A DNA stretch of 64,000 nt from positions 2,878 to 66,877 of the forward strand of contig NZ_JAGRLA010000062.1 in NCBI RefSeq assembly GCF_020442045.1, in the 5' to 3' direction. Numbering within the stretch: position 1 is the first letter of the stretch; every line of letters begins with the position of its first letter. The notes beneath the pieces are model-generated. The model searched no databases. It saw only the letters and a list, made by a program, of their open reading frames with translations, and was not told where the DNA came from. Both the position numbers and the translations under genes were made by a program. Positions 20,461 to 29,103 of this stretch are shown piece after piece. The DNA comes from Bauldia sp. (GTDB lineage Bacteria > Pseudomonadota > Alphaproteobacteria > Rhizobiales > Kaistiaceae).

Positions 20461-21123
20461 ATGACCGTGCTTGTTCATCCCGTTTCCGGATCGATGCTTG
20501 CGGCCGAGGAGATCGAGGCCTGGCGGATGATCCCCGTCGCGGTCGCGGTCGACCTGACGCGCGACATCGGGCAGATCGATCCGGCCATACGTCCGCTCAA
20601 CCCGCCGGGACGGCAGCCGCGCCTGTTTGGTCGCGCCGTGACCGCGCGTTGCGAGCCGCCGGATTTCGGCGCGGTGGTCCATGCGCTGGATGTCGCCGGC
20701 CCCGGCGACGTGTTGATGATCTCCGCAGCGGGCAATGCCGACTTCGCCATGATCGGCGAGGTCCTCGGCGGATACCTGCGGCGGCGCGGCTGCGCCGGCC
20801 TGGTCTGCGATGGCGCGGTTCGCGACGTCGGCACCCTGGCGGGCTGGCCGAACTTTTCCGTCTATGCGCGGTCGATCACGCCACGCGGGCCGGAATCCGC
20901 CGAACGAGGGGCGGTCAACGCGCCCGTCGTGATCGGCGGGCAGCCGGTATCGGCCGGCGACCTTGTGATCGGCGACGATGACGGGGTCGTCGCCCTGCCG
21001 CCGGAGGCCGCCCGCTCCCGGATCGGGGCCGCGCAAGGCAGGCTCGCCCTCGAAGCCGAGTGGCAGCAAAGCCTGGCAAGCGGACGAACGGCGGCGGAGA
21101 CCTTCGGTTCCGGGACGGCCTGA
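20461..21123 (+). CDS. RraA family / HMG-CHA aldolase-like protein
   Basis: GPGDVLMI, AMIGEV, VCDGAVRD, GDLVIGDDDGVV; SD AGGAAGG. Confidence 0.85.
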   Translation: MTVLVHPVSGSMLAAEEIEAWRMIPVAVAVDLTRDIGQIDPAIRPLNPPGRQPRLFGRAVTARCEPPDFGAVVHALDVAGPGDVLMISAAGNADFAMIGEVLGGYLRRRGCAGLVCDGAVRDVGTLAGWPNFSVYARSITPRGPESAERGAVNAPVVIGGQPVSAGDLVIGDDDGVVALPPEAARSRIGAAQGRLALEAEWQQSLASGRTAAETFGSGTA

Positions 21124-21135
21124 TCCGGCGCCCGG

Positions 21136-21155
21136 CCGCCAGGCAAGCCTGGCGG
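21136..21155. terminator. Hairpin between convergent genes
   Basis: CCGCCAGG-CAAG-CCTGGCGG, 13 nt after the RraA-family stop. Confidence 0.45.
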
Positions 21156-21332
21156 CGAGGCGGTCGTGGAAAGACGCGGTCCTCCGGGAGCGTTCGGGCG
21201 GTGCGGATCGTGCCGGCGGCCATCACGGTGCCATCCCGCGTCGCGTTCCACGACGGGGTGGCGTCGTCGCCCGTCCCGCGAAATGGGGGGCGTGCCAGAA
21301 GGCTCCTCCGGCCGCCACGTCCTGAAGCGCGC

Positions 21333-22265
21333 CTATTGCCGGGACGGCCCGTCCGGTGACGACACCTGGATGTCGGGCCTGGCCAGGTGCGTGCGGACGA
21401 AACCGAGGCTGCGCCGCACGGCGGCGACGACCTCGCTGCTCGAAGGCGCCCTGGCCTGCCGCACGGGGTCTCCCCGCCCTGGTCGCCTAAGCCGGATCGG
21501 ATGCTCGATCCCGACCGGAATGCCGGCCTCGCGGATCGCGCCGAAGACCTCATCGTTGTAATTCACTACACCCTCTCCGATCGGACAATAGACCCAGTCA
21601 GCGCCCGACTCGCGCACATCCTTCAGATGAATATGCGCGCTGAATGGCAACGCCGCCTTCAGGTCGTCCAGCGCGTCGGTCTTGCGGCCGCCGTAGGTGA
21701 GCGCATTGCCGATGTCGTAGTTCAGTCGAAGATTGGGATGGGCGATCGCCGCCACGATTCGGGCGGATTCCTGTCCGGCCGGCAACAGGGCATCGGCTCC
21801 GTGGCCGGGGTTCTCGATTGCAAGCGTAACACCTGTGGAGGCGAAGGCGTCCAGCACCCCGCCGAGCAGGGCCTCAAACGTTGCTCGCCGCTCCAAGGTC
21901 GTGGCGTTGGAAATCAGGATCGAAGCGCCGGCCGCCGCGGCGAAATCGAGGCGGCGCAGGAGCTTCCCGGCGCTCTCGGCACGACCAAGATCCATATGCG
22001 CGGACAGCGCCCGAAGAGCCAGGCCGGCATCGGCGGCCGCGGCTGCCAGCGCGTTGCCGTTCCTCTCGGAGAACGTGGTCTCGTCGAACGGCATATAGCC
22101 GTCGATGTATGCGGGTTCGACCGCCGTCGCGCCGGCTTGCGCGATCATCTCAAGGCCCCGTCGGAACGAGGCGCCGTCGGTCACGACGGTCGATACGGAT
22201 ATCTGGGGCGACGCCTCGCGGTCGCCGTTCCCGACGCCTTTCGACACCAGACTTCTCCATGACAT
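21333..22265 (-). CDS. Sugar phosphate isomerase/epimerase (xylose isomerase-like TIM barrel)
   Basis: Metal-ligand pattern LAIENPG, LNYDIGN, HIHLKD and GIEH. The true start may be a few codons downstream. Confidence 0.8.
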   Translation of the reverse strand: MSWRSLVSKGVGNGDREASPQISVSTVVTDGASFRRGLEMIAQAGATAVEPAYIDGYMPFDETTFSERNGNALAAAAADAGLALRALSAHMDLGRAESAGKLLRRLDFAAAAGASILISNATTLERRATFEALLGGVLDAFASTGVTLAIENPGHGADALLPAGQESARIVAAIAHPNLRLNYDIGNALTYGGRKTDALDDLKAALPFSAHIHLKDVRESGADWVYCPIGEGVVNYNDEVFGAIREAGIPVGIEHPIRLRRPGRGDPVRQARAPSSSEVVAAVRRSLGFVRTHLARPDIQVSSPDGPSRQ

Positions 22266-22279
22266 CGTTGATGTTATGA

Positions 22280-22298
22280 TGGTATACTGAGTATGCTA
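22280..22298. promoter_or_regulatory. Imperfect palindrome, candidate GntR/FadR operator in a divergent promoter
   Basis: TGGTATACT-G-AGTATGCTA (2 mismatches from a perfect palindrome) in an AT-rich 85-bp divergent spacer. Confidence 0.45.
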
Positions 22299-22350
22299 TC
22301 CGAAGATCAAGCCGGAGCAGACAACCGGCTGGGCGATGCGGGGGGAGCAA

Positions 22351-23190
22351 ATGACGCGTTCGGTTGCCGTATTCGGGGCGGGCGGAAAAATGGGCTTCCG
22401 CGTCGCCAAGAAGCTGTTCGATGCCGGCTACGACCTGCGGGCGATCGAGATCGGCGAAGCAGGCAAGAAGCGTCTCACCGACGGCGGCATCGAGCCGGTG
22501 GGCATCGATGCCGGTCTCGACAGGGCCGAGGTCGTCGTGCTGGCCCTGCCCGACAACATCATCGGCAAGGTCGCGGCCGAGATCGAGCCGAAGCTGCCGG
22601 CCGGCACGATGCTCCTCATCCTCGATGCGGCGGCGCCCTACGCGGATGACCTTCCCAAGAACCGCCCGGACCTGACGTATTTCGTCGGCCATCCCTGCCA
22701 CCCGCCGCTCTATAACGACGAGACCGAATGGGACGCGCGCCGCGACTATCACGGCGGCGTCGCCAAACAGGCGATCGTGTGCGCGCTGATGCAGGGGCCG
22801 GAAGCGCATTACGCCGTCGGTGCAGAGATTTGCGAGGCCATGTGGTCACCGGTCACGACCACGCATCGCGTGACGACCGAACAGCTGGCGATTCTGGAGC
22901 CCGGCCTCTCCGAGATGCTCGCCATGTGCATGGTCGACGTCATGTGCGAGGCGGTCGACGAATGCGAGACCAAATACGGCATCCCCCGGCAGGCCGCGCA
23001 TGACTTCCTGATCGGCCATCTCAATGTCGAGATCGCAATGTGGTTCGGCTATTCGCCGAAGGTTCCATCCGATGCCGCGCTGCGCCTGCTGAGATTCGGC
23101 AAGTCGAAGATCATGCGCGAAGGCTGGCGCGATGCGCTTTCGCCCGCGGTCGTGCGCGAGGCGGCGGAGCTGATCGTCAATGCCAAGTAG
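22351..23190 (+). CDS. D-apionate oxidoisomerase-like protein (ApnO / PGDH_C family)
   Basis: AVFGAGGKMG, LALPDNIIG, LDAAAP, YFVGHPCHPP, ALMQGPE and LEPGLSE, recognised as the ApnO family signature; SD GGGGGAG. Confidence 0.75.
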   Translation: MTRSVAVFGAGGKMGFRVAKKLFDAGYDLRAIEIGEAGKKRLTDGGIEPVGIDAGLDRAEVVVLALPDNIIGKVAAEIEPKLPAGTMLLILDAAAPYADDLPKNRPDLTYFVGHPCHPPLYNDETEWDARRDYHGGVAKQAIVCALMQGPEAHYAVGAEICEAMWSPVTTTHRVTTEQLAILEPGLSEMLAMCMVDVMCEAVDECETKYGIPRQAAHDFLIGHLNVEIAMWFGYSPKVPSDAALRLLRFGKSKIMREGWRDALSPAVVREAAELIVNAK

Positions 23191-23232
23191 GGCGGCGCCC
23201 GCGATCCGGGCTCGGTGCGGGCGGGCCGGTCG

Positions 23233-23427
23233 ATGACCTGTCGCGGCGCCCTGATCGGATGCGGTTTCCTCGCTGAGGATCACATGGATGCCCGGGCCGG
23301 GATCGGCGGTACGGAAATCGCTGCCGCCCGCGGTCTCGGCGTGACGTTCGCCATCGGGTCCTTGCGAGCCGGCGAGGCCGTGGTGCCGCCGCCTCGCCAA
23401 GGAATCAACCAGCCGGCGCCGCGATGA
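23233..23427 (+). pseudogene. Remnant of a Gfo/Idh/MocA oxidoreductase (N-terminal ~32 codons)
   Basis: MTCRGALIGCGFLAEDHMDARAGIGGTEIAAA resembles the GxLIGCGFF..H..AW..I.G.EIVA start of Gfo/Idh/MocA enzymes, then loses similarity and stops at 23427. Confidence 0.6.
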
Positions 23428-23554
23428 AGCGCGCCGAAACGAAGGGATGCCGAGCGCCGCGGGGCGAGATGCAAATCCTGGTTTCGGGTTGCCCGGACCT
23501 TGATGGGAGCGACCGCTCCCGACCACCACACCAGCAAATGATGGGAGGAAGACC

Positions 23555-24547
23555 ATGAGATCGCTGACATCCACCGTAACTGCCTCGCTGATCGCCCTTG
23601 GCGGAATCGTGGCCGGTACCTCGGCCAACGCGGCGACGATCTGCTTCGCCTTCCAGGATCTGGAGACGGAATTCTGGGTCGCCGGTCACAAGGCGATCAC
23701 CACGACGCTTGCCGACCAGGGCCATACCGTCCTGGAGCGGAACGCAAACGAGGATGCCAACAAGCAGCTCGAGCAGATCAAGGATTGTATCGCCCAGGGC
23801 GTCGACGGCATCATCGTCATCCCGCAGGATGGCGAGAGCGCAGTGACCATCGTCAAGGAGGCTCAGTCGGCCGACGTGCCGATCGCCGTGTTCAACCGGC
23901 CGCCCACCGACACCTCCAAGGGCATCGTCGTCGTCGCCGACAACAAGACCATCGCCGAGCAGGCGGTCGACTACATCGTCGAGGAAGCTCTGGCCAAGGC
24001 TCCCGCCGACAAGACGCTGAACGCGATCATCATCGTCGGCGACCTGGGCGACCCCAACGCCGTGGGCCGCAAGGACGGCTTCTATGCGGCGATCGACAAG
24101 CACAAGGATCGCTTCAACGTCGTCGAGGTCGCGTCGAAGTGGGATGCCGCCACGGCGCTCGCCAACCTGGAGGCGGCGGTGACCGCGAACCCGGAGGTGG
24201 ACCTCCTCTTCACGTCCTCCGACTTCCTGTTCCCGACCATCCGTTCGGTCTTCGAGCCGCGCGGCCTCTGGAAAAAGCCGGGCGAGGACGGGCACGTGAT
24301 GATGGCCGGGCTCGACGGTGACAAGACCGCCTGCCAGCTGATCAAGGACGGCTACGTCGATGCCACCGGCGTCCAGGACCTCTACTTCGAGGCGGATGCG
24401 TCGCTGAAGGCCATCCTGGCGGCCATCGATGGCGGCGAGGCCCAGCCGAATGAAGTCGTGCAGGATCCCGGCTTCGCGCTGACGCAGGCCAACCTCGGCA
24501 CTGATGAAATGAAGATGTGGGGCTGCGTCCTTCTCGCTGGCAAGTAA
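23555..24547 (+). CDS. Sugar ABC transporter substrate-binding protein (RbsB-like)
   Basis: Signal peptide, EFWVAG, QGVDGIIVIP and AGLDGD; SD GGGAGG. Confidence 0.9.
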   Translation: MRSLTSTVTASLIALGGIVAGTSANAATICFAFQDLETEFWVAGHKAITTTLADQGHTVLERNANEDANKQLEQIKDCIAQGVDGIIVIPQDGESAVTIVKEAQSADVPIAVFNRPPTDTSKGIVVVADNKTIAEQAVDYIVEEALAKAPADKTLNAIIIVGDLGDPNAVGRKDGFYAAIDKHKDRFNVVEVASKWDAATALANLEAAVTANPEVDLLFTSSDFLFPTIRSVFEPRGLWKKPGEDGHVMMAGLDGDKTACQLIKDGYVDATGVQDLYFEADASLKAILAAIDGGEAQPNEVVQDPGFALTQANLGTDEMKMWGCVLLAGK

Positions 24548-24566
24548 CGTTCCCCGACGAGAGCAA

Positions 24567-24600
24567 CCATCGGGCAGGCCGATCGCTGCCTGCCCGATGG
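24567..24600 (+). other. Intercistronic stem-loop after the SBP gene
   Basis: Perfect 13-bp IR CCATCGGGCAGGC-N8-GCCTGCCCGATGG, typical of mRNA-stabilising hairpins that raise SBP over permease expression. Confidence 0.65.
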
Positions 24601-24617
24601 GCCTGCGGAGCCCGCAA

Positions 24618-25736
24618 ATGCCGTCAGCCGCCTCCAGCCCATCCCGGAAATGGGCGTCGAGACTGTTTCTCTCGGACTATTTCGTCCTCTACCTGTCGCT
24701 GGCCTATGTCGCCATCCTGGCGCCGTTCCTTCCGACGCTCCTCAATCCGGCCAATATTTCCAACGTCCTTTCAAACCTGTGGCCGCTGCTGGTGGTCGCG
24801 ACCGGACAGACCTTCATCCTGGCCACCGCCGGGATCGATCTCAGCCAGGGCGCCGTCATCGCCGTGACGTCGGTGATAGGTGCGATGCTGATCGCCGTCA
24901 CCGGCAACGCGGCCGTGCTTTCGAACGCGCCGATCTGGGGTGTCTTCATTGGCGAGCAGGGCGGGATTCTCGCCGGCAGCATCGGCGGCATCGCCGTTGC
25001 CATCGCCATCATGATGCTTGTCGCGATCCTGATCGGCCTGCTGAACGGGGTGTCCGTGGCCGTCTTCGGCATGCCGGCCTTCATGGTGACGCTGGTGACC
25101 ATGATCGTCATCGGCGCCGTGGCGATCTATCTTTCGCTTTCCGAAAACATCAGCAACCTGCCGGATGCCTTCGTCACCCTCGGCAAGGGCGATCTCGTGT
25201 CGGTCTATTTCGGGGCGCAGGACGAAAGCAAAATCCCCCGCAAGATCATCTATTCCTTCGTGACCTATCCGATGGTCATCGCCGTGGCGGTCGCCGTCGC
25301 GGCTCACTATCTCCTGAACCGGACCGTGTTCGGGCGCCAGGTCGTTGCCGTCGGTTCCAACAAGCGCAACGCCGAGGTCTCGGGCATCCCGGTGCGGCGG
25401 GTGATCGTCGCGGTCTTCGTCATCTCCGCCGTCTGCGCGGCGATCGGCTCGATCCTCTACTCGGCCCGGCTGGAGGCGGGCCGTCCGACGCTGGGCGCCG
25501 GCACCTTCCTTCTCGACGTGATCGGCGCAACCGTGATCGGCGGCACGAGCCTCTTCGGCGGCAAGGCGAAGATCATCTGGACCTTCTTCGGCGTGCTGTT
25601 CTTCGTGCTCCTGTCGAATACGCTCAACCTGATGAACCTGTCCGCCTTCCAGGTCGACATGGTCAAGGGCGCGGTCATTCTCGCCGCGGCCCTTCTCGAC
25701 GTGCTGCGAACCCGGCTGACCCGGGAGTTGACGTGA
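24618..25736 (+). CDS. Sugar ABC transporter permease
   Basis: GIDLSQG, PAFMVTL, VFGRQVVAVGSN..AEVSGI (EAA loop) and IGGTSLFGG. Confidence 0.9.
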   Translation: MPSAASSPSRKWASRLFLSDYFVLYLSLAYVAILAPFLPTLLNPANISNVLSNLWPLLVVATGQTFILATAGIDLSQGAVIAVTSVIGAMLIAVTGNAAVLSNAPIWGVFIGEQGGILAGSIGGIAVAIAIMMLVAILIGLLNGVSVAVFGMPAFMVTLVTMIVIGAVAIYLSLSENISNLPDAFVTLGKGDLVSVYFGAQDESKIPRKIIYSFVTYPMVIAVAVAVAAHYLLNRTVFGRQVVAVGSNKRNAEVSGIPVRRVIVAVFVISAVCAAIGSILYSARLEAGRPTLGAGTFLLDVIGATVIGGTSLFGGKAKIIWTFFGVLFFVLLSNTLNLMNLSAFQVDMVKGAVILAAALLDVLRTRLTRELT

Positions 25737-27235
25737 TGGGCGACCTGCTGGCGTTCGAGGGGCTGTCGAAAAGCTGGTTCGGCGTGCCGGCGGTCTCCGA
25801 TCTGACCCTGGCGATGCGTGAGAATTCGCTCCTCGGGGTGATCGGGCAGAATGGCGCCGGCAAGTCGACGCTCATGAACATGATCGGCGGGATCGTTGAG
25901 CCGACGAGCGGCCGGATGCGATGGAAGGGCGCGGATTACGAGCCGAAATCGGCCGCCGATGCGAGCGAGGCGGGCATCGCCTTCATCCATCAGGAACTCA
26001 ATCTTTTCACCAACCTGACCGTAGCGGAGAACCTCTACATAGATGGTTTTCCGCGAAAATTCGGGATGATCGATTGGGCGACGATCAACGAGCGCACCCG
26101 ACATATCCTCGGACGGCTGGCCCTCGACGTCGAGCCGTCGGTGAATGTCGGCCACCTGTCGCCCGGCGAGCGTCAGCTCGTCGAGATTGCCCGCGCGCTT
26201 CACAACGAGGCCGAGCTCGTCATCTTCGACGAGCCGACGACCTCGCTGACCCCGCGCGAAACGGAGCGGCTCTTCGAAACCATCGCCACACTGCGGGGGG
26301 AGGGGCGTTCCATCGTCTACATCTCCCACATCCTGAGCGACGTGAAGAAGCTGTCGGACGACGTCGCGGTCCTTCGTGACGGCAAGTTGGTCGACCAGGG
26401 GCCAGCGAGCGATTTCTCCATCGCGCGCATGATCCGCTCGATGATCGGACGCGACCTTGGCGGCCAATTCCCGGAACGCAGCAACACGCCGACGACCAGC
26501 GCCATCCTGTCCGCCCGATCCCTGTCGCAGCCGGGCGTTCTGCAGGATGTCTCCATCGCGGTGAATCGAGGTGAGATTCTTGGATTATTCGGCCTCATGG
26601 GCGCCGGCCGCAGCGAATTGGCGCGGGTCATCTTCGGCCTTGATCCGCACGAGACCGGCGAGATCGAGATCGATGGCAAGCCGCTCGCCGGCGGTCCGCG
26701 CGAGCGCATCGCCGCCGGGCTCGCCTTCGTCACCGAAGACAGGCGCGCGGAGGGACTCATGCTCGAGGCGCCGATCGCCGAGAATCTCGCCCTGGTATCG
26801 ATCGACCGGTTTGGCAAAAAGCCCTTCATGCTGGTCGATCGCGAACGGGTGGCGGAAGAAACCGAGGCGATGAAGGACAACCTTTCGATAAAGGCGGGCA
26901 ACATCGCCCGCCAGCCGGCCAAGGCCCTGTCGGGCGGCAACCAGCAGAAGGTCGTGATCGGAAAATGGCAGATGCAGTCGCCGAAGCTCTTCATCCTCGA
27001 TGAACCGACTCGCGGAGTCGATGTCGGCGCCAAATACGAGATCTACACGCTGATCGACCGGATCGCGGCCACCGGCGGCGGTATTCTGATGATTTCCTCC
27101 GAGCTCGAAGAGCTGCTCGGCATGGCGGATCGCATCGTCGTGATGAATCGCGGCGAGGTGGTCGGCGAGGTCGGTCGCGACGAGTTCGATCGCGAGACCA
27201 TCCTTTCAATGGCATTCCGCGAGGTGATCGCGTGA
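25736..27235 (+). CDS. Sugar ABC transporter ATP-binding protein (two fused NBDs)
   Basis: GQNGAGKST, IFDEPT, LSGGNQQK and ILDEPTRGVDVGAK; start overlaps the upstream stop. Confidence 0.93.
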   Translation: MGDLLAFEGLSKSWFGVPAVSDLTLAMRENSLLGVIGQNGAGKSTLMNMIGGIVEPTSGRMRWKGADYEPKSAADASEAGIAFIHQELNLFTNLTVAENLYIDGFPRKFGMIDWATINERTRHILGRLALDVEPSVNVGHLSPGERQLVEIARALHNEAELVIFDEPTTSLTPRETERLFETIATLRGEGRSIVYISHILSDVKKLSDDVAVLRDGKLVDQGPASDFSIARMIRSMIGRDLGGQFPERSNTPTTSAILSARSLSQPGVLQDVSIAVNRGEILGLFGLMGAGRSELARVIFGLDPHETGEIEIDGKPLAGGPRERIAAGLAFVTEDRRAEGLMLEAPIAENLALVSIDRFGKKPFMLVDRERVAEETEAMKDNLSIKAGNIARQPAKALSGGNQQKVVIGKWQMQSPKLFILDEPTRGVDVGAKYEIYTLIDRIAATGGGILMISSELEELLGMADRIVVMNRGEVVGEVGRDEFDRETILSMAFREVIA

Positions 27236-28212
27236 CCCGGTCGATGGACAAGATCAGCGATTTCGTCTTCCGCAACGCCACCTATCTGATCTTCGCCGGC
27301 GTGCTGATCTACTACGGCATCCAGGCGCCGTCATTCCTGACCCCGGAAAGCCTCGTCAACATCGTCAAGCAGGCGTCGTTTACCGGCATCGCCGCCGTCG
27401 GAATGACTTTCGTGCTTCTGACCGCCGGCATCGACCTGTCCGTCGGCTCGGTCATGTTCCTCGCGCCGCTGATGGCAGGCTATGTGATGCGCGACCTCGG
27501 CATGCCGGTGCCGGTCGCCGTGGTTGCCGCTGTCCTGACCGGCGTGGTCCTCGGCTCGATCAACGCCATTCTGATCGTTCGCCTGCGTGTCATCCCGTTC
27601 ATCACGACACTGGCGACGCTCTTTCTCTTTCGCGGGTTCGGTACCTGGCTGACGAGCTCGCAGCAGTTCGACTTTCCGGATGAAATCCGCGCCTTCGGCC
27701 TTTCCGGTGTGTTCGGCATTCCGACGCCGATCATCGTCTTCACGGCCGTCGCATTGGTGGCGCATCTTGTCCTGGCGCATACGGAATTCGGCCGCCAGGT
27801 ATATGCGTTCGGCAATTCTCCGGAAGGCGCGCGGAAGGCGGGGCTCAAGGTTGGCTGGATCCAGGCGCGGGTCTACATCATCTGCTCGGCCTGTGCGGCG
27901 CTTTCGGGCTTCATGCTGATCGCCCAGATCGGCCGACTCGATGCCGCTTTCGGCGAAGGGGCCGAATTCGACGTGATCGCCGCCGCCGTGCTCGGCGGCG
28001 CGAGCCTGTTCGGTGGCATCGGCTCCGCCTTCGGGGCGGTGATCGGCGCGACACTCATCCAAACGGTAAAGCTCGGCCTGGTTTTCACAGGCGTCAACCT
28101 GTATCTGCAGCCAATCATTCAGGGCGTTATCATCTTCATCGCGGTCCTCGTTGACGGCATGCGCGAGAAGCAGGTCCTGGCGAAGATGAAACGAACGATC
28201 CGTCCATTGTAG
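27232..28212 (+). CDS. Sugar ABC transporter permease
   Basis: GIDLSVG, IPFITTLA, FGRQVYAFGNS and LGGASLFGG. Confidence 0.9.
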   Translation: MTRSMDKISDFVFRNATYLIFAGVLIYYGIQAPSFLTPESLVNIVKQASFTGIAAVGMTFVLLTAGIDLSVGSVMFLAPLMAGYVMRDLGMPVPVAVVAAVLTGVVLGSINAILIVRLRVIPFITTLATLFLFRGFGTWLTSSQQFDFPDEIRAFGLSGVFGIPTPIIVFTAVALVAHLVLAHTEFGRQVYAFGNSPEGARKAGLKVGWIQARVYIICSACAALSGFMLIAQIGRLDAAFGEGAEFDVIAAAVLGGASLFGGIGSAFGAVIGATLIQTVKLGLVFTGVNLYLQPIIQGVIIFIAVLVDGMREKQVLAKMKRTIRPL

Positions 28213-28362
28213 GATGCCGAGCGGAAATCAGTCTGAGCGAGGGATCCAACGGGGGAAGCGCATCCAGTACCTGGGCCGCGGGATTGCTTCTGACCGGGCC
28301 GTTTGCCAATTGGGCGGCAACTCGCAATATGAAGCCGAACAGGTTTCGAATCGAAGGCACGT

Positions 28363-29103
28363 GTGAAACAGCGCGCACCCGAACAGATCGAGAAGCGACG
28401 CCTCTATCAGGAGGTGATGGAGCGTCTGATCTCCCTCATCAAGGAGGGCGGCCTGCGCCCCGGCGACAGGCTACCGTCGGAGCGCGCGCTCATGGAACGC
28501 TATGGCGTTGGCCGGCCGGCCGTCCGCGAGGCGCTGCAGAACATGGCCAATATCGGCCTGGTCACCCTGACACAGGGCGAAAGGGCGAGTGTCGCGGCGC
28601 CAAGCTTCTCGAACCTGATACAGACCGTGTCGCTCACCACCAAGGGCATTTTGAGACACAGCAGCGAGAGCCTCGATGACCTGAAGGAGGCGCGGCTCCT
28701 GTTTGAATCGCAGATGGTGCGCCTTGCCGTCGAACGCGCAACGGACGAACAGATCATGGTGCTGGAACAACGCCTGAAGGAGCACTCGGGATCCCTCGAC
28801 AACCTCGGTACGTTCTTGCACCACGACATGCTGTTTCATCGCGAGATCGCCGCCATGACCGGCAACTCGATCTTCCCGCATCTGAGCGAGGCGCTGATCG
28901 GGTGGCTCGCCGAGTTCCACCTCGAACTCGTTCGACTTCCGGGCGCCGAGCAGCTGACCCTGTCCGAGCACGCATCGATTTTCGACGCGGTCAAGGCACG
29001 TGACGCCGATGCCGCCGAAGAGGCGATGCGCAATCACCTGACCCGGGCCAACAAGCTTTACCAGCATCTCCTTCCGGAGAGCCTCCCTTCCGATACCGCC
29101 TGA
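28363..29103 (+). CDS. GntR/FadR family regulator (NanR-like, FCD domain)
   Basis: LRPGDRLPSERALMERYGVGRPAVREAL HTH; DMLFHREIA and EHASIFDAV FCD motifs. Confidence 0.9.
   Translation: MKQRAPEQIEKRRLYQEVMERLISLIKEGGLRPGDRLPSERALMERYGVGRPAVREALQNMANIGLVTLTQGERASVAAPSFSNLIQTVSLTTKGILRHSSESLDDLKEARLLFESQMVRLAVERATDEQIMVLEQRLKEHSGSLDNLGTFLHHDMLFHREIAAMTGNSIFPHLSEALIGWLAEFHLELVRLPGAEQLTLSEHASIFDAVKARDADAAEEAMRNHLTRANKLYQHLLPESLPSDTA

Follow-up and report, generated by a model that had tools for sequence, protein, structure and literature searches.

D-Apiose is a branched sugar of pectin (rhamnogalacturonan II) and of plant glycosides, and only a handful of the enzymes of its catabolism have been assayed. 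Known routes pass from D-apiose through D-apionate to the oxidoisomerase ApnO. Routes 1 and 2 use ApsD, ApnL, ApnO, OiaK and either OiaX or OiaT (for example on an R. etli plasmid); route 3 runs through ApnO, OiaC, LerK, LerI and DerI (Pantoea sp. At-9b). Here we describe a locus with an ApnO-like gene in Bauldia sp. (contig NZ_JAGRLA010000062.1), at positions 20461–29103 of the 64,000-nucleotide stretch that was analysed (the window; GC content about 66%).

Locus organization

Scans with Pfam and NCBIfam place eight genes at the locus (Table 1). An earlier note on this DNA had listed an ApnO-like oxidoisomerase, a TIM barrel, an RraA homologue, a four-gene ATP-binding cassette (ABC) system and a NanR-like regulator, and every one of these is present. 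Its order and orientation need correction: the RraA-like gene lies at the 5' end, the regulator at the 3' end, and the TIM-barrel gene on the minus strand. The note also reported no kinase, RuBisCO-like protein (RLP) or transketolase in the locus, and none occurs in the whole window.

Table 1. Genes and other features of the locus (positions in the window)
Feature	Position	Strand	Basis
RraA-like	20461–21123	+	PF03737 family
Xylose-isomerase-like TIM barrel (TIM-W)	21333–22265	-	PF01261, E 5e-21
Sigma-70-like promoter and GGTATA box	22259–22288	+	ATGACA-18-TATACT, with TG
PGDH_C/ApnO-like oxidoisomerase	22336/22351–23190	+	PF16896, 200 bits
apsD remnant (Gfo/Idh/MocA D-apiose dehydrogenase)	23233–23325	+	tblastn
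CUT2 periplasmic substrate-binding protein (SBP)	23555–24547	+	PF13407 (Peripla_BP_4)
ABC permease 1	24597–25736	+	NCBIfam, AraH/RbsC-like
ABC ATPase, two cassettes	25733–27235	+	PF00005 x2; AraG/RbsA-like, 486 bits
ABC permease 2	27232–28212	+	PF02653
GntR/FCD regulator, NanR subfamily	28363–29103	+	PF00392 and PF07729; NF003011

The RraA-like and TIM-barrel genes are convergent and 209 bp apart, and the TIM-barrel and oxidoisomerase genes diverge from an 85-bp spacer. The stop of permease 1 overlaps the start of the ATPase gene by 4 nt, as does the ATPase stop the start of permease 2. An open reading frame of 861 codons at 24650–27235 (+) is an artefact of high GC content: its first 360 or so codons overlap the permease gene in another frame, and only its last 500 or so are the ATPase.

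A distinct clade of ApnO

The oxidoisomerase has 279 amino acids counted from the ATG at 22351, where its database homologues, likewise of 279 residues, also start. It shows the expected Rossmann N-terminal domain (a weak KARI_N match) followed by PGDH_C, and its nearest relatives are alphaproteobacterial, from Rhodobacterales and Hyphomicrobiales records. Neither this protein nor the TIM barrel matches the NCBIfam models for OiaK, OiaX or ApnL. In a maximum-likelihood tree of 33 sequences from the fetched loci, the window protein and 18 others form a clade with a long stem and full support (100/100), here called type III. The window protein scores 412 bits against PDB 3c24 and 289 bits against PDB 5t57. 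These two structural-genomics entries, deposited as a 'putative oxidoreductase' and a 'semialdehyde dehydrogenase NAD-binding protein', both belong to the ApnO family by sequence, 3c24 to type III and 5t57 to type I. The earlier note's idea of a paralogous oxidoisomerase thus holds to this extent: the protein is in a clade separate from the characterised type, two of its pocket residues are remodelled, and the genome has a second paralogue.

Characterised ApnOs (EC 1.1.1.421) comprise B9JK75, F8GV06, Q6D8V3, C0CMQ7 and the crystallised Aurantimonas enzyme, AaApnO, whose functional residues have been listed (Watanabe et al., 2026; PMC13753588). Two of them are 39–46% identical to AaApnO by published figures; at about 50–56% identity, the window protein and type I sequences appear closer to each other than that. 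In our alignment D68, D92, H113, H116, E183, S187, E188, F218, H222 and S239, which are metal, NAD and substrate contacts of AaApnO, are invariant across types I, II and III, and so are kept in the window protein and the other aligned type III sequences (19 in total). D68, D92, H113, H116, E183, E188, F218 and S239 are essential in AaApnO (PMC13753588). The hydrophobic pocket F133, V225, L226, F238 and C242 reads H, V, E, P and A in the window protein; positions 226 and 242 also vary among the other ApnO types.

Genomic context of type III

Twenty further type III loci were collected (21 with the window) and scored against the proteins of the window and of canonical clusters. Orthologues of the window ApnO, 67–82% identical, lie in clusters with ApsD-like, ApnL, OiaK-like and RLP genes. 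The Gfo/Idh/MocA dehydrogenase beside type III genes is 42–47% identical to its counterpart in the apiose clusters of R. etli, S. meliloti and Salipiger, and the sole NCBIfam match of the neighbouring ApnL is D-apionate lactonase (NF049900, 358 bits). A DUF1537 kinase, an RLP and an SBP 72–79% identical to that of the window are also found in these D-apiose clusters, and type III has ApsD and ApnL as its immediate neighbours in 10 loci or more. The gene order of Ahrensia marina is GntR, then SBP-permease-ATPase-permease-ApnO-ApnL-ApsD-RLP-OiaK, and its type III gene is the only PF16896 (PGDH_C) match of the genome. Because of this full D-apiose context, including a species where no other PGDH_C gene is available, type III is most likely a true D-apionate oxidoisomerase. 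The earlier note had allowed for another branched sugar as substrate, which is unlikely given that orthologues of both ApnO and SBP lie in full D-apiose clusters. It had also named grouping with bona fide ApnO as a result that would speak against its own reading; by context, type III behaves as bona fide ApnO.

The architectures nearest to the window are those of loci L026 and L028, where the TIM-barrel gene diverges from ApnO-ApsD-SBP-permease-ATPase-permease-GntR. Within the genus the locus is patchy, being present in 2 of 13 genomes. Type III coexists with type I or II, in the same genome or cluster, in six genomes (G000, G007, G041, G043, G125 and G210) and in S. meliloti LMB1. Four loci (L002 on pA of S. 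meliloti LMB1, L031, L033 and L074) have a type I and a type III gene around one RLP gene, in the order GntR-RLP-ApnO(III)-TIM; the presence of two types in one cluster suggests that they are not redundant.

The 364-bp spacer between the ApnO and SBP genes holds a feature absent from the earlier gene list. About 30 codons of the ApsD N-terminus remain there (65% identity over 34 amino acids to the N-terminus of the L028 ApsD, by tblastn), followed by unrelated sequence. ApsD sits at this position, between ApnO and SBP, in L025–L028, indicating that apsD has been deleted from the window locus. The window copy must consequently start from apionate or use another dehydrogenase.

The TIM-barrel partner

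Homologues of the TIM barrel, TIM-W, align from about residue 22, so translation probably begins at a point downstream of its first ATG. TIM-W is the conserved partner of type III, encoded divergently or directly downstream in 17 of the 21 loci. Its identity among these loci (38–57%) is roughly 0.5–0.7 of that of ApnO (68–82%). We surveyed 251 Hyphomicrobiales genomes, 33 of which have a PGDH_C gene and five a TIM-W match; all four matches at 40% identity or more adjoin a type III ApnO. The type III loci of Ahrensia and Sulfitobacter D35 lack a TIM-barrel gene and carry OiaK and RLP instead, and no TIM-W homologue was found anywhere in either genome.

A metal-binding tetrad, E151/D184/H213/E254, is invariant in 34 TIM-W homologues. 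The best PDB folds for the AlphaFold2 model (predicted local distance difference test score 92) are ketose and ketose-phosphate 3-epimerases (template modelling score 0.65–0.75, 14–19% identity). The only NCBIfam match, a weak one, is L-ribulose-5-phosphate 3-epimerase; a PDB sequence search gave a nearest match at E 8e-4, and the ESM Atlas matches were only generic 'sugar phosphate isomerase' clusters.

As a proxy for standard OiaC we used the TIM barrel of the route-3-like cluster on plasmid pPAT9B04 of Pantoea sp. At-9b, which we take to match the Pectobacterium cluster of Carter 2018. Its gene order is major facilitator superfamily (MFS) transporter, DAK kinase, triose-phosphate isomerase (TPI) family, TIM barrel and ApnO, with rpiB and tkt nearby. 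TIM-W is 24% identical to this protein and scores 39 bits against it, whereas Pantoea-type members reach at least 116 bits among themselves and members of the TIM-W subfamily at least 145 bits. By these scores TIM-W lies outside the Pantoea route-3 subfamily that stands in for characterised OiaC. The comparison agrees with the earlier note's description of a divergent TIM barrel, and, within the limits of a proxy, TIM-W does not look like the standard OiaC that the note said would undermine its reading. Profile comparison (hhalign) still relates the two at 98% probability, with the same E-D-H-E metal motifs. No Pantoea-type TIM barrel lies beside a PGDH_C gene in the 251 genomes. Searches of Rhizobium and Sinorhizobium replicons for an ApnO-OiaC-LerK cluster returned canonical route-1 clusters only, and neither the window nor any type III locus has a LerK gene.

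Relatives of TIM-W at 34–38% identity occur without ApnO in R. tropici, beside DhaK/DhaL, a tripartite ATP-independent periplasmic (TRAP) transporter and an oxidoreductase, and in Sphaerotilus, beside a short-chain dehydrogenase/reductase (SDR), a TRAP transporter and a split transketolase. More distant relatives are found in DAK/TPI/RpiB clusters of Klebsiella and Pasteurella. The recurring neighbourhood of an acid transporter (TRAP or MFS), a dehydrogenase, a TIM barrel and a ketose (DAK) kinase fits a step between keto acid and ketose. The fold itself is compatible with a decarboxylase or with an epimerase working through the same enediolate. Taken on sequence and neighbours, the most likely role of TIM-W is to handle the 3-oxo acid; among candidate reactions we rank decarboxylation first and epimerization or isomerization second.

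The Sphaerotilus cluster, with its TIM barrel and split transketolase, had suggested a D-apiose isomerase. We rejected this idea because it leaves the two-gene ApnO and TIM-W modules unexplained; the TRAP (carboxylate-type) transporter and SDR of that cluster also argue against it. In two other genomes (G288 and G145; loci L072 and L073) a Pantoea-type, OiaC-like TIM barrel immediately precedes DhaK/DhaL, and PGDH_C genes are absent within 10 kb; the arrangement mirrors TIM-W-DhaK-DhaL on pRtrCIAT899a of R. tropici.

Regulation and transport

The regulator scores 284 bits against the NanR-subfamily model (NF003011; cut-off 260), and the annotations of canonical apionate clusters include regulators of this type. 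The spacer between the TIM-W and ApnO genes contains the region's only sigma-70-like site, which matches at 10 of 12 positions (one found against 0.2 expected). Its -10 element falls inside a GGTATA box, TGGTATACT, a motif with a single mismatch-free occurrence in the window. Loci L025–L029 keep the same TGACA-N17-TGGTATACTA arrangement ahead of ApnO, and a GGTATA box also precedes ApnO in L015, L038 and L039. Since GGTATA repeats are the operator of E. coli NanR, it is a reasonable inference that TGGTATACT is a candidate operator of the NanR-like regulator.

The window SBP, for all its closeness to the SBPs of type III clusters, is distant from solved SBPs, including the apiose-binding 5ibq (E 3e-15), and is not diagnostic.

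A second apionate locus in the genome

The second PGDH_C paralogue, ApnO2, is on another contig (C147). It is 44% identical to the window ApnO and scores 336 bits against 5t57; a Sinorhizobium plasmid paralogue beside ApsD and ABC genes scores 441 bits. The locus (L001, C147:31000–50999) encodes a GntR regulator, an RLP, a DUF1537 kinase, ApnO2, an HpcH aldolase, a 2-hydroxyacid dehydrogenase and a CUT1 ABC system. Its aldolase, dehydrogenase and transporter tail is conserved in congeners (L016 and L018–L020). The best NCBIfam matches on this contig are OiaK (545 bits) and OiaX (457 bits), both with cut-offs of 700, and ApnL (590 bits), all below equivalog level; the ApnL gene is 8 kb from the rest of the locus. 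Against the OiaX model, the RLPs of R. etli and R. jaguaris reach 785–788 bits and those of C147 and the type III loci 433–476 bits, a gap that suggests the latter are of the OiaT-like kind.

The end of C147 carries a DhaK-like gene with 53% identity to the DhaK of the R. etli apiose cluster, and contig C113 has a DhaKLM set of the phosphotransferase-system type. A Dak1 gene is split across the contig ends C147:73841–74590 and C123:41045–41197, so these two contigs probably abut in the genome. Erythrulose kinase genes elsewhere in the genome were a further finding that the earlier note had set against its reading. That point is weakly borne out by the DhaK-like gene that lies elsewhere.

The RraA-like gene

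The earlier note made aldol cleavage by the RraA-like protein the exit step of the pathway, and this is not supported. An RraA homologue is present in 1 of the 21 type III loci, namely the window. The gene is monocistronic, convergent with TIM-W and without a GGTATA box upstream, and its NCBIfam scores fall short of equivalog level for the aldolases (120 bits with a cut-off of 179, and 105 bits with one of 304). Three congeners without type III ApnO have orthologues (68–76% identity), in contexts that share no gene with the window; in two of these genomes (G010 and G011) the orthologue has an AraC regulator on one side and a cluster of aldehyde dehydrogenase and bacterial microcompartment (BMC) shell genes on the other. 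The orthologue in G004 has an in-frame TGA. From its single occurrence, orientation, low scores and the other contexts of its orthologues, we regard the RraA-like gene as a bystander, a chance neighbour.

Interpretation

We read the locus as a reduced module for the uptake and oxidation of D-apiose or D-apionate, and give this a probability of roughly 0.55. Gene content, clade membership, residue conservation, conserved contexts and the apsD remnant are what we observed; from them we infer substrates and activities, the link between regulator and operator, and the TIM-W reaction. The NanR-like GntR protein would act as a repressor of the divergent promoter between the TIM-W gene and the ApnO-ABC operon. 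D-Apiose or its acid would enter the cell through the CUT2 ABC system. Like the characterised enzymes, type III ApnO would oxidize D-apionate at C2 in an NAD-dependent reaction, with coupled migration of the hydroxymethyl group, to give 3-oxo-isoapionate, a beta-keto acid. TIM-W, with its metal-dependent, enediolate-stabilizing fold, would most likely decarboxylate 3-oxo-isoapionate to L-erythrulose, filling an OiaC-like role from a different subfamily. Phosphorylation of the product would then fall to a kinase of the DhaK type from another part of the genome. In an alternative course, the OiaK/RLP branch on C147 would take over the keto acid.

Several observations weigh against this reading. 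The loci are a sample chosen for their similarity to the query, and several end at contig edges. F133 is His and F238 is Pro in every type III sequence, whereas types I and II and the Pantoea ApnO keep Phe at both positions, so the specificity of type III could differ. TIM-W scores low against the OiaC proxy. Genes of the LerI and DerI types (TPI-type and RpiB-type isomerases) were found neither in the window nor in any type III locus, and one genome with TIM-W (G042) has no Dak1 match. An RLP gene is present in all six checked genomes with the pair of type III and TIM-W, Bauldia included, so TIM-W could act downstream of an RLP branch. No close ApsD was found elsewhere in the genome (best 33% identity), and together with the deletion of apsD this means that the locus may be decaying.

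A more specific proposal, which we hold tentatively and at somewhat worse than even odds, is that type III ApnO and TIM-W form an undescribed apionate branch. In this proposal a TIM barrel that is not an OiaC orthologue would replace OiaC or act elsewhere on the keto acid or tetrulose, and the His133/Pro238 pocket would be co-adapted. TIM-W could instead be a tetrulose or tetrulose-phosphate 3-epimerase or isomerase, either interconverting L- and D-erythrulose or substituting for LerI on L-erythrulose-1-phosphate, with the 3-oxo acid losing CO2 spontaneously or via the RLP branch. The structural matches, the sole NCBIfam match, the lack of TPI- or RpiB-type isomerases in type III loci, the RLP gene in all six TIM-W genomes and the order GntR-RLP-ApnO-TIM in several loci fit such an enzyme, and related 3-oxo acids are reported to decarboxylate spontaneously (PMC13753588). 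We nevertheless think it unlikely, because minimal modules of ApnO and TIM-W, with or without ABC and ApsD genes, have no kinase or RLP gene nearby (the window, L015, L026–L028, L035 and L070), because the RLPs of these loci look OiaT-type and so would need no erythrulose-phosphate isomerase, and because the distant Klebsiella and Pasteurella relatives co-occur with TPI-family and RpiB genes of their own. Less likely again is a neofunctionalized type III that prefers another acid (D-ribonate, D-erythronate or a branched acid), its keto product being processed by TIM-W. Clade-specific F133H and F238P and the coexistence with type I or II would suit this; F133A and F238A lower the kcat of AaApnO 17- to 40-fold, and AaApnO accepts several acids (PMC13753588). 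Set against it are the sole PGDH_C gene of A. marina within a full ApsD/ApnL/OiaK/RLP cluster, the direct flanking by ApsD and ApnL, and the apsD remnant at the window locus itself.

Decay would give the apsD deletion another meaning: the loss would mark a lost function, and the remaining genes would no longer serve apiose. The patchy distribution in the genus and a complete second apionate locus on C147 agree with this, as do the truncation of apsD and the lack of a close ApsD elsewhere. But the other eight genes are all intact and their GC content at third codon positions (0.80–0.89) is of the coding type, the catalytic residues and the promoter and operator are conserved, and apionate-starting clusters without ApsD have been described (PMC13753588), which makes decay very unlikely. 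The least probable account is an exit step in which an RraA/HMG-type aldolase splits what the oxidoisomerase or TIM-W produces. Its gene is only 209 bp from that of TIM-W, and, by NCBIfam names, some aldolases of the family can also decarboxylate oxaloacetate, itself a beta-keto acid; its near-absence from type III loci, convergent orientation, missing GGTATA box, sub-cut-off scores and orthologues in congeners without type III all run the other way.

Comparison with known systems

Like characterised ApnO, the window protein has the PF16896 architecture, all catalytic, metal and NAD-contact residues, and orthologues in clusters with ApsD, ApnL, OiaK and RLP. It differs in its clade, with a long and fully supported stem and a structure (3c24) that bears no functional name, in the two pocket replacements, and in being nearly always paired with TIM-W.

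Route 3 resembles the window locus in that ApnO adjoins a PF01261 TIM barrel with the same tetrad, entry at the acid level is possible, and the genome has a DAK kinase gene. The differences are that TIM-W is of another subfamily, the window has no DAK, TPI-family or RpiB gene, and an ABC importer replaces the MFS transporter. With routes 1 and 2 the locus shares the regulator type, the CUT2 ABC system and ApnO; relatives of the window locus have the whole set, and the OiaK, RLP and ApnL part is on C147 in this genome. The window locus itself lacks ApsD (deleted), ApnL, OiaK and RLP, and its SBP is of another CUT2 lineage than 5ibq. The RraA-like gene shares the fold and family of 4-hydroxy-4-methyl-2-oxoglutarate/4-carboxy-4-hydroxy-2-oxoadipate (HMG/CHA) aldolases (PF03737; PDB 3noj), but it is below equivalog level and unlinked to ApnO by conservation, orientation or regulatory motif.

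The pathway is thus of a known kind, here in reduced form; what is unusual is the distinct ApnO clade, its remodelled pocket and its uncharacterised TIM-barrel partner subfamily. The gain is incremental and establishes no new principle; it helps in annotating the pathway and in discovering enzymes. The RraA aldolase is removed as a misleading lead. The ApnO family is split into at least three clades defined by context, and the orphan crystal structure 3c24 is offered a probable function. A small TIM-barrel subfamily that travels with one ApnO clade becomes a candidate for an alternative 3-oxo-isoapionate decarboxylase or a tetrulose epimerase.

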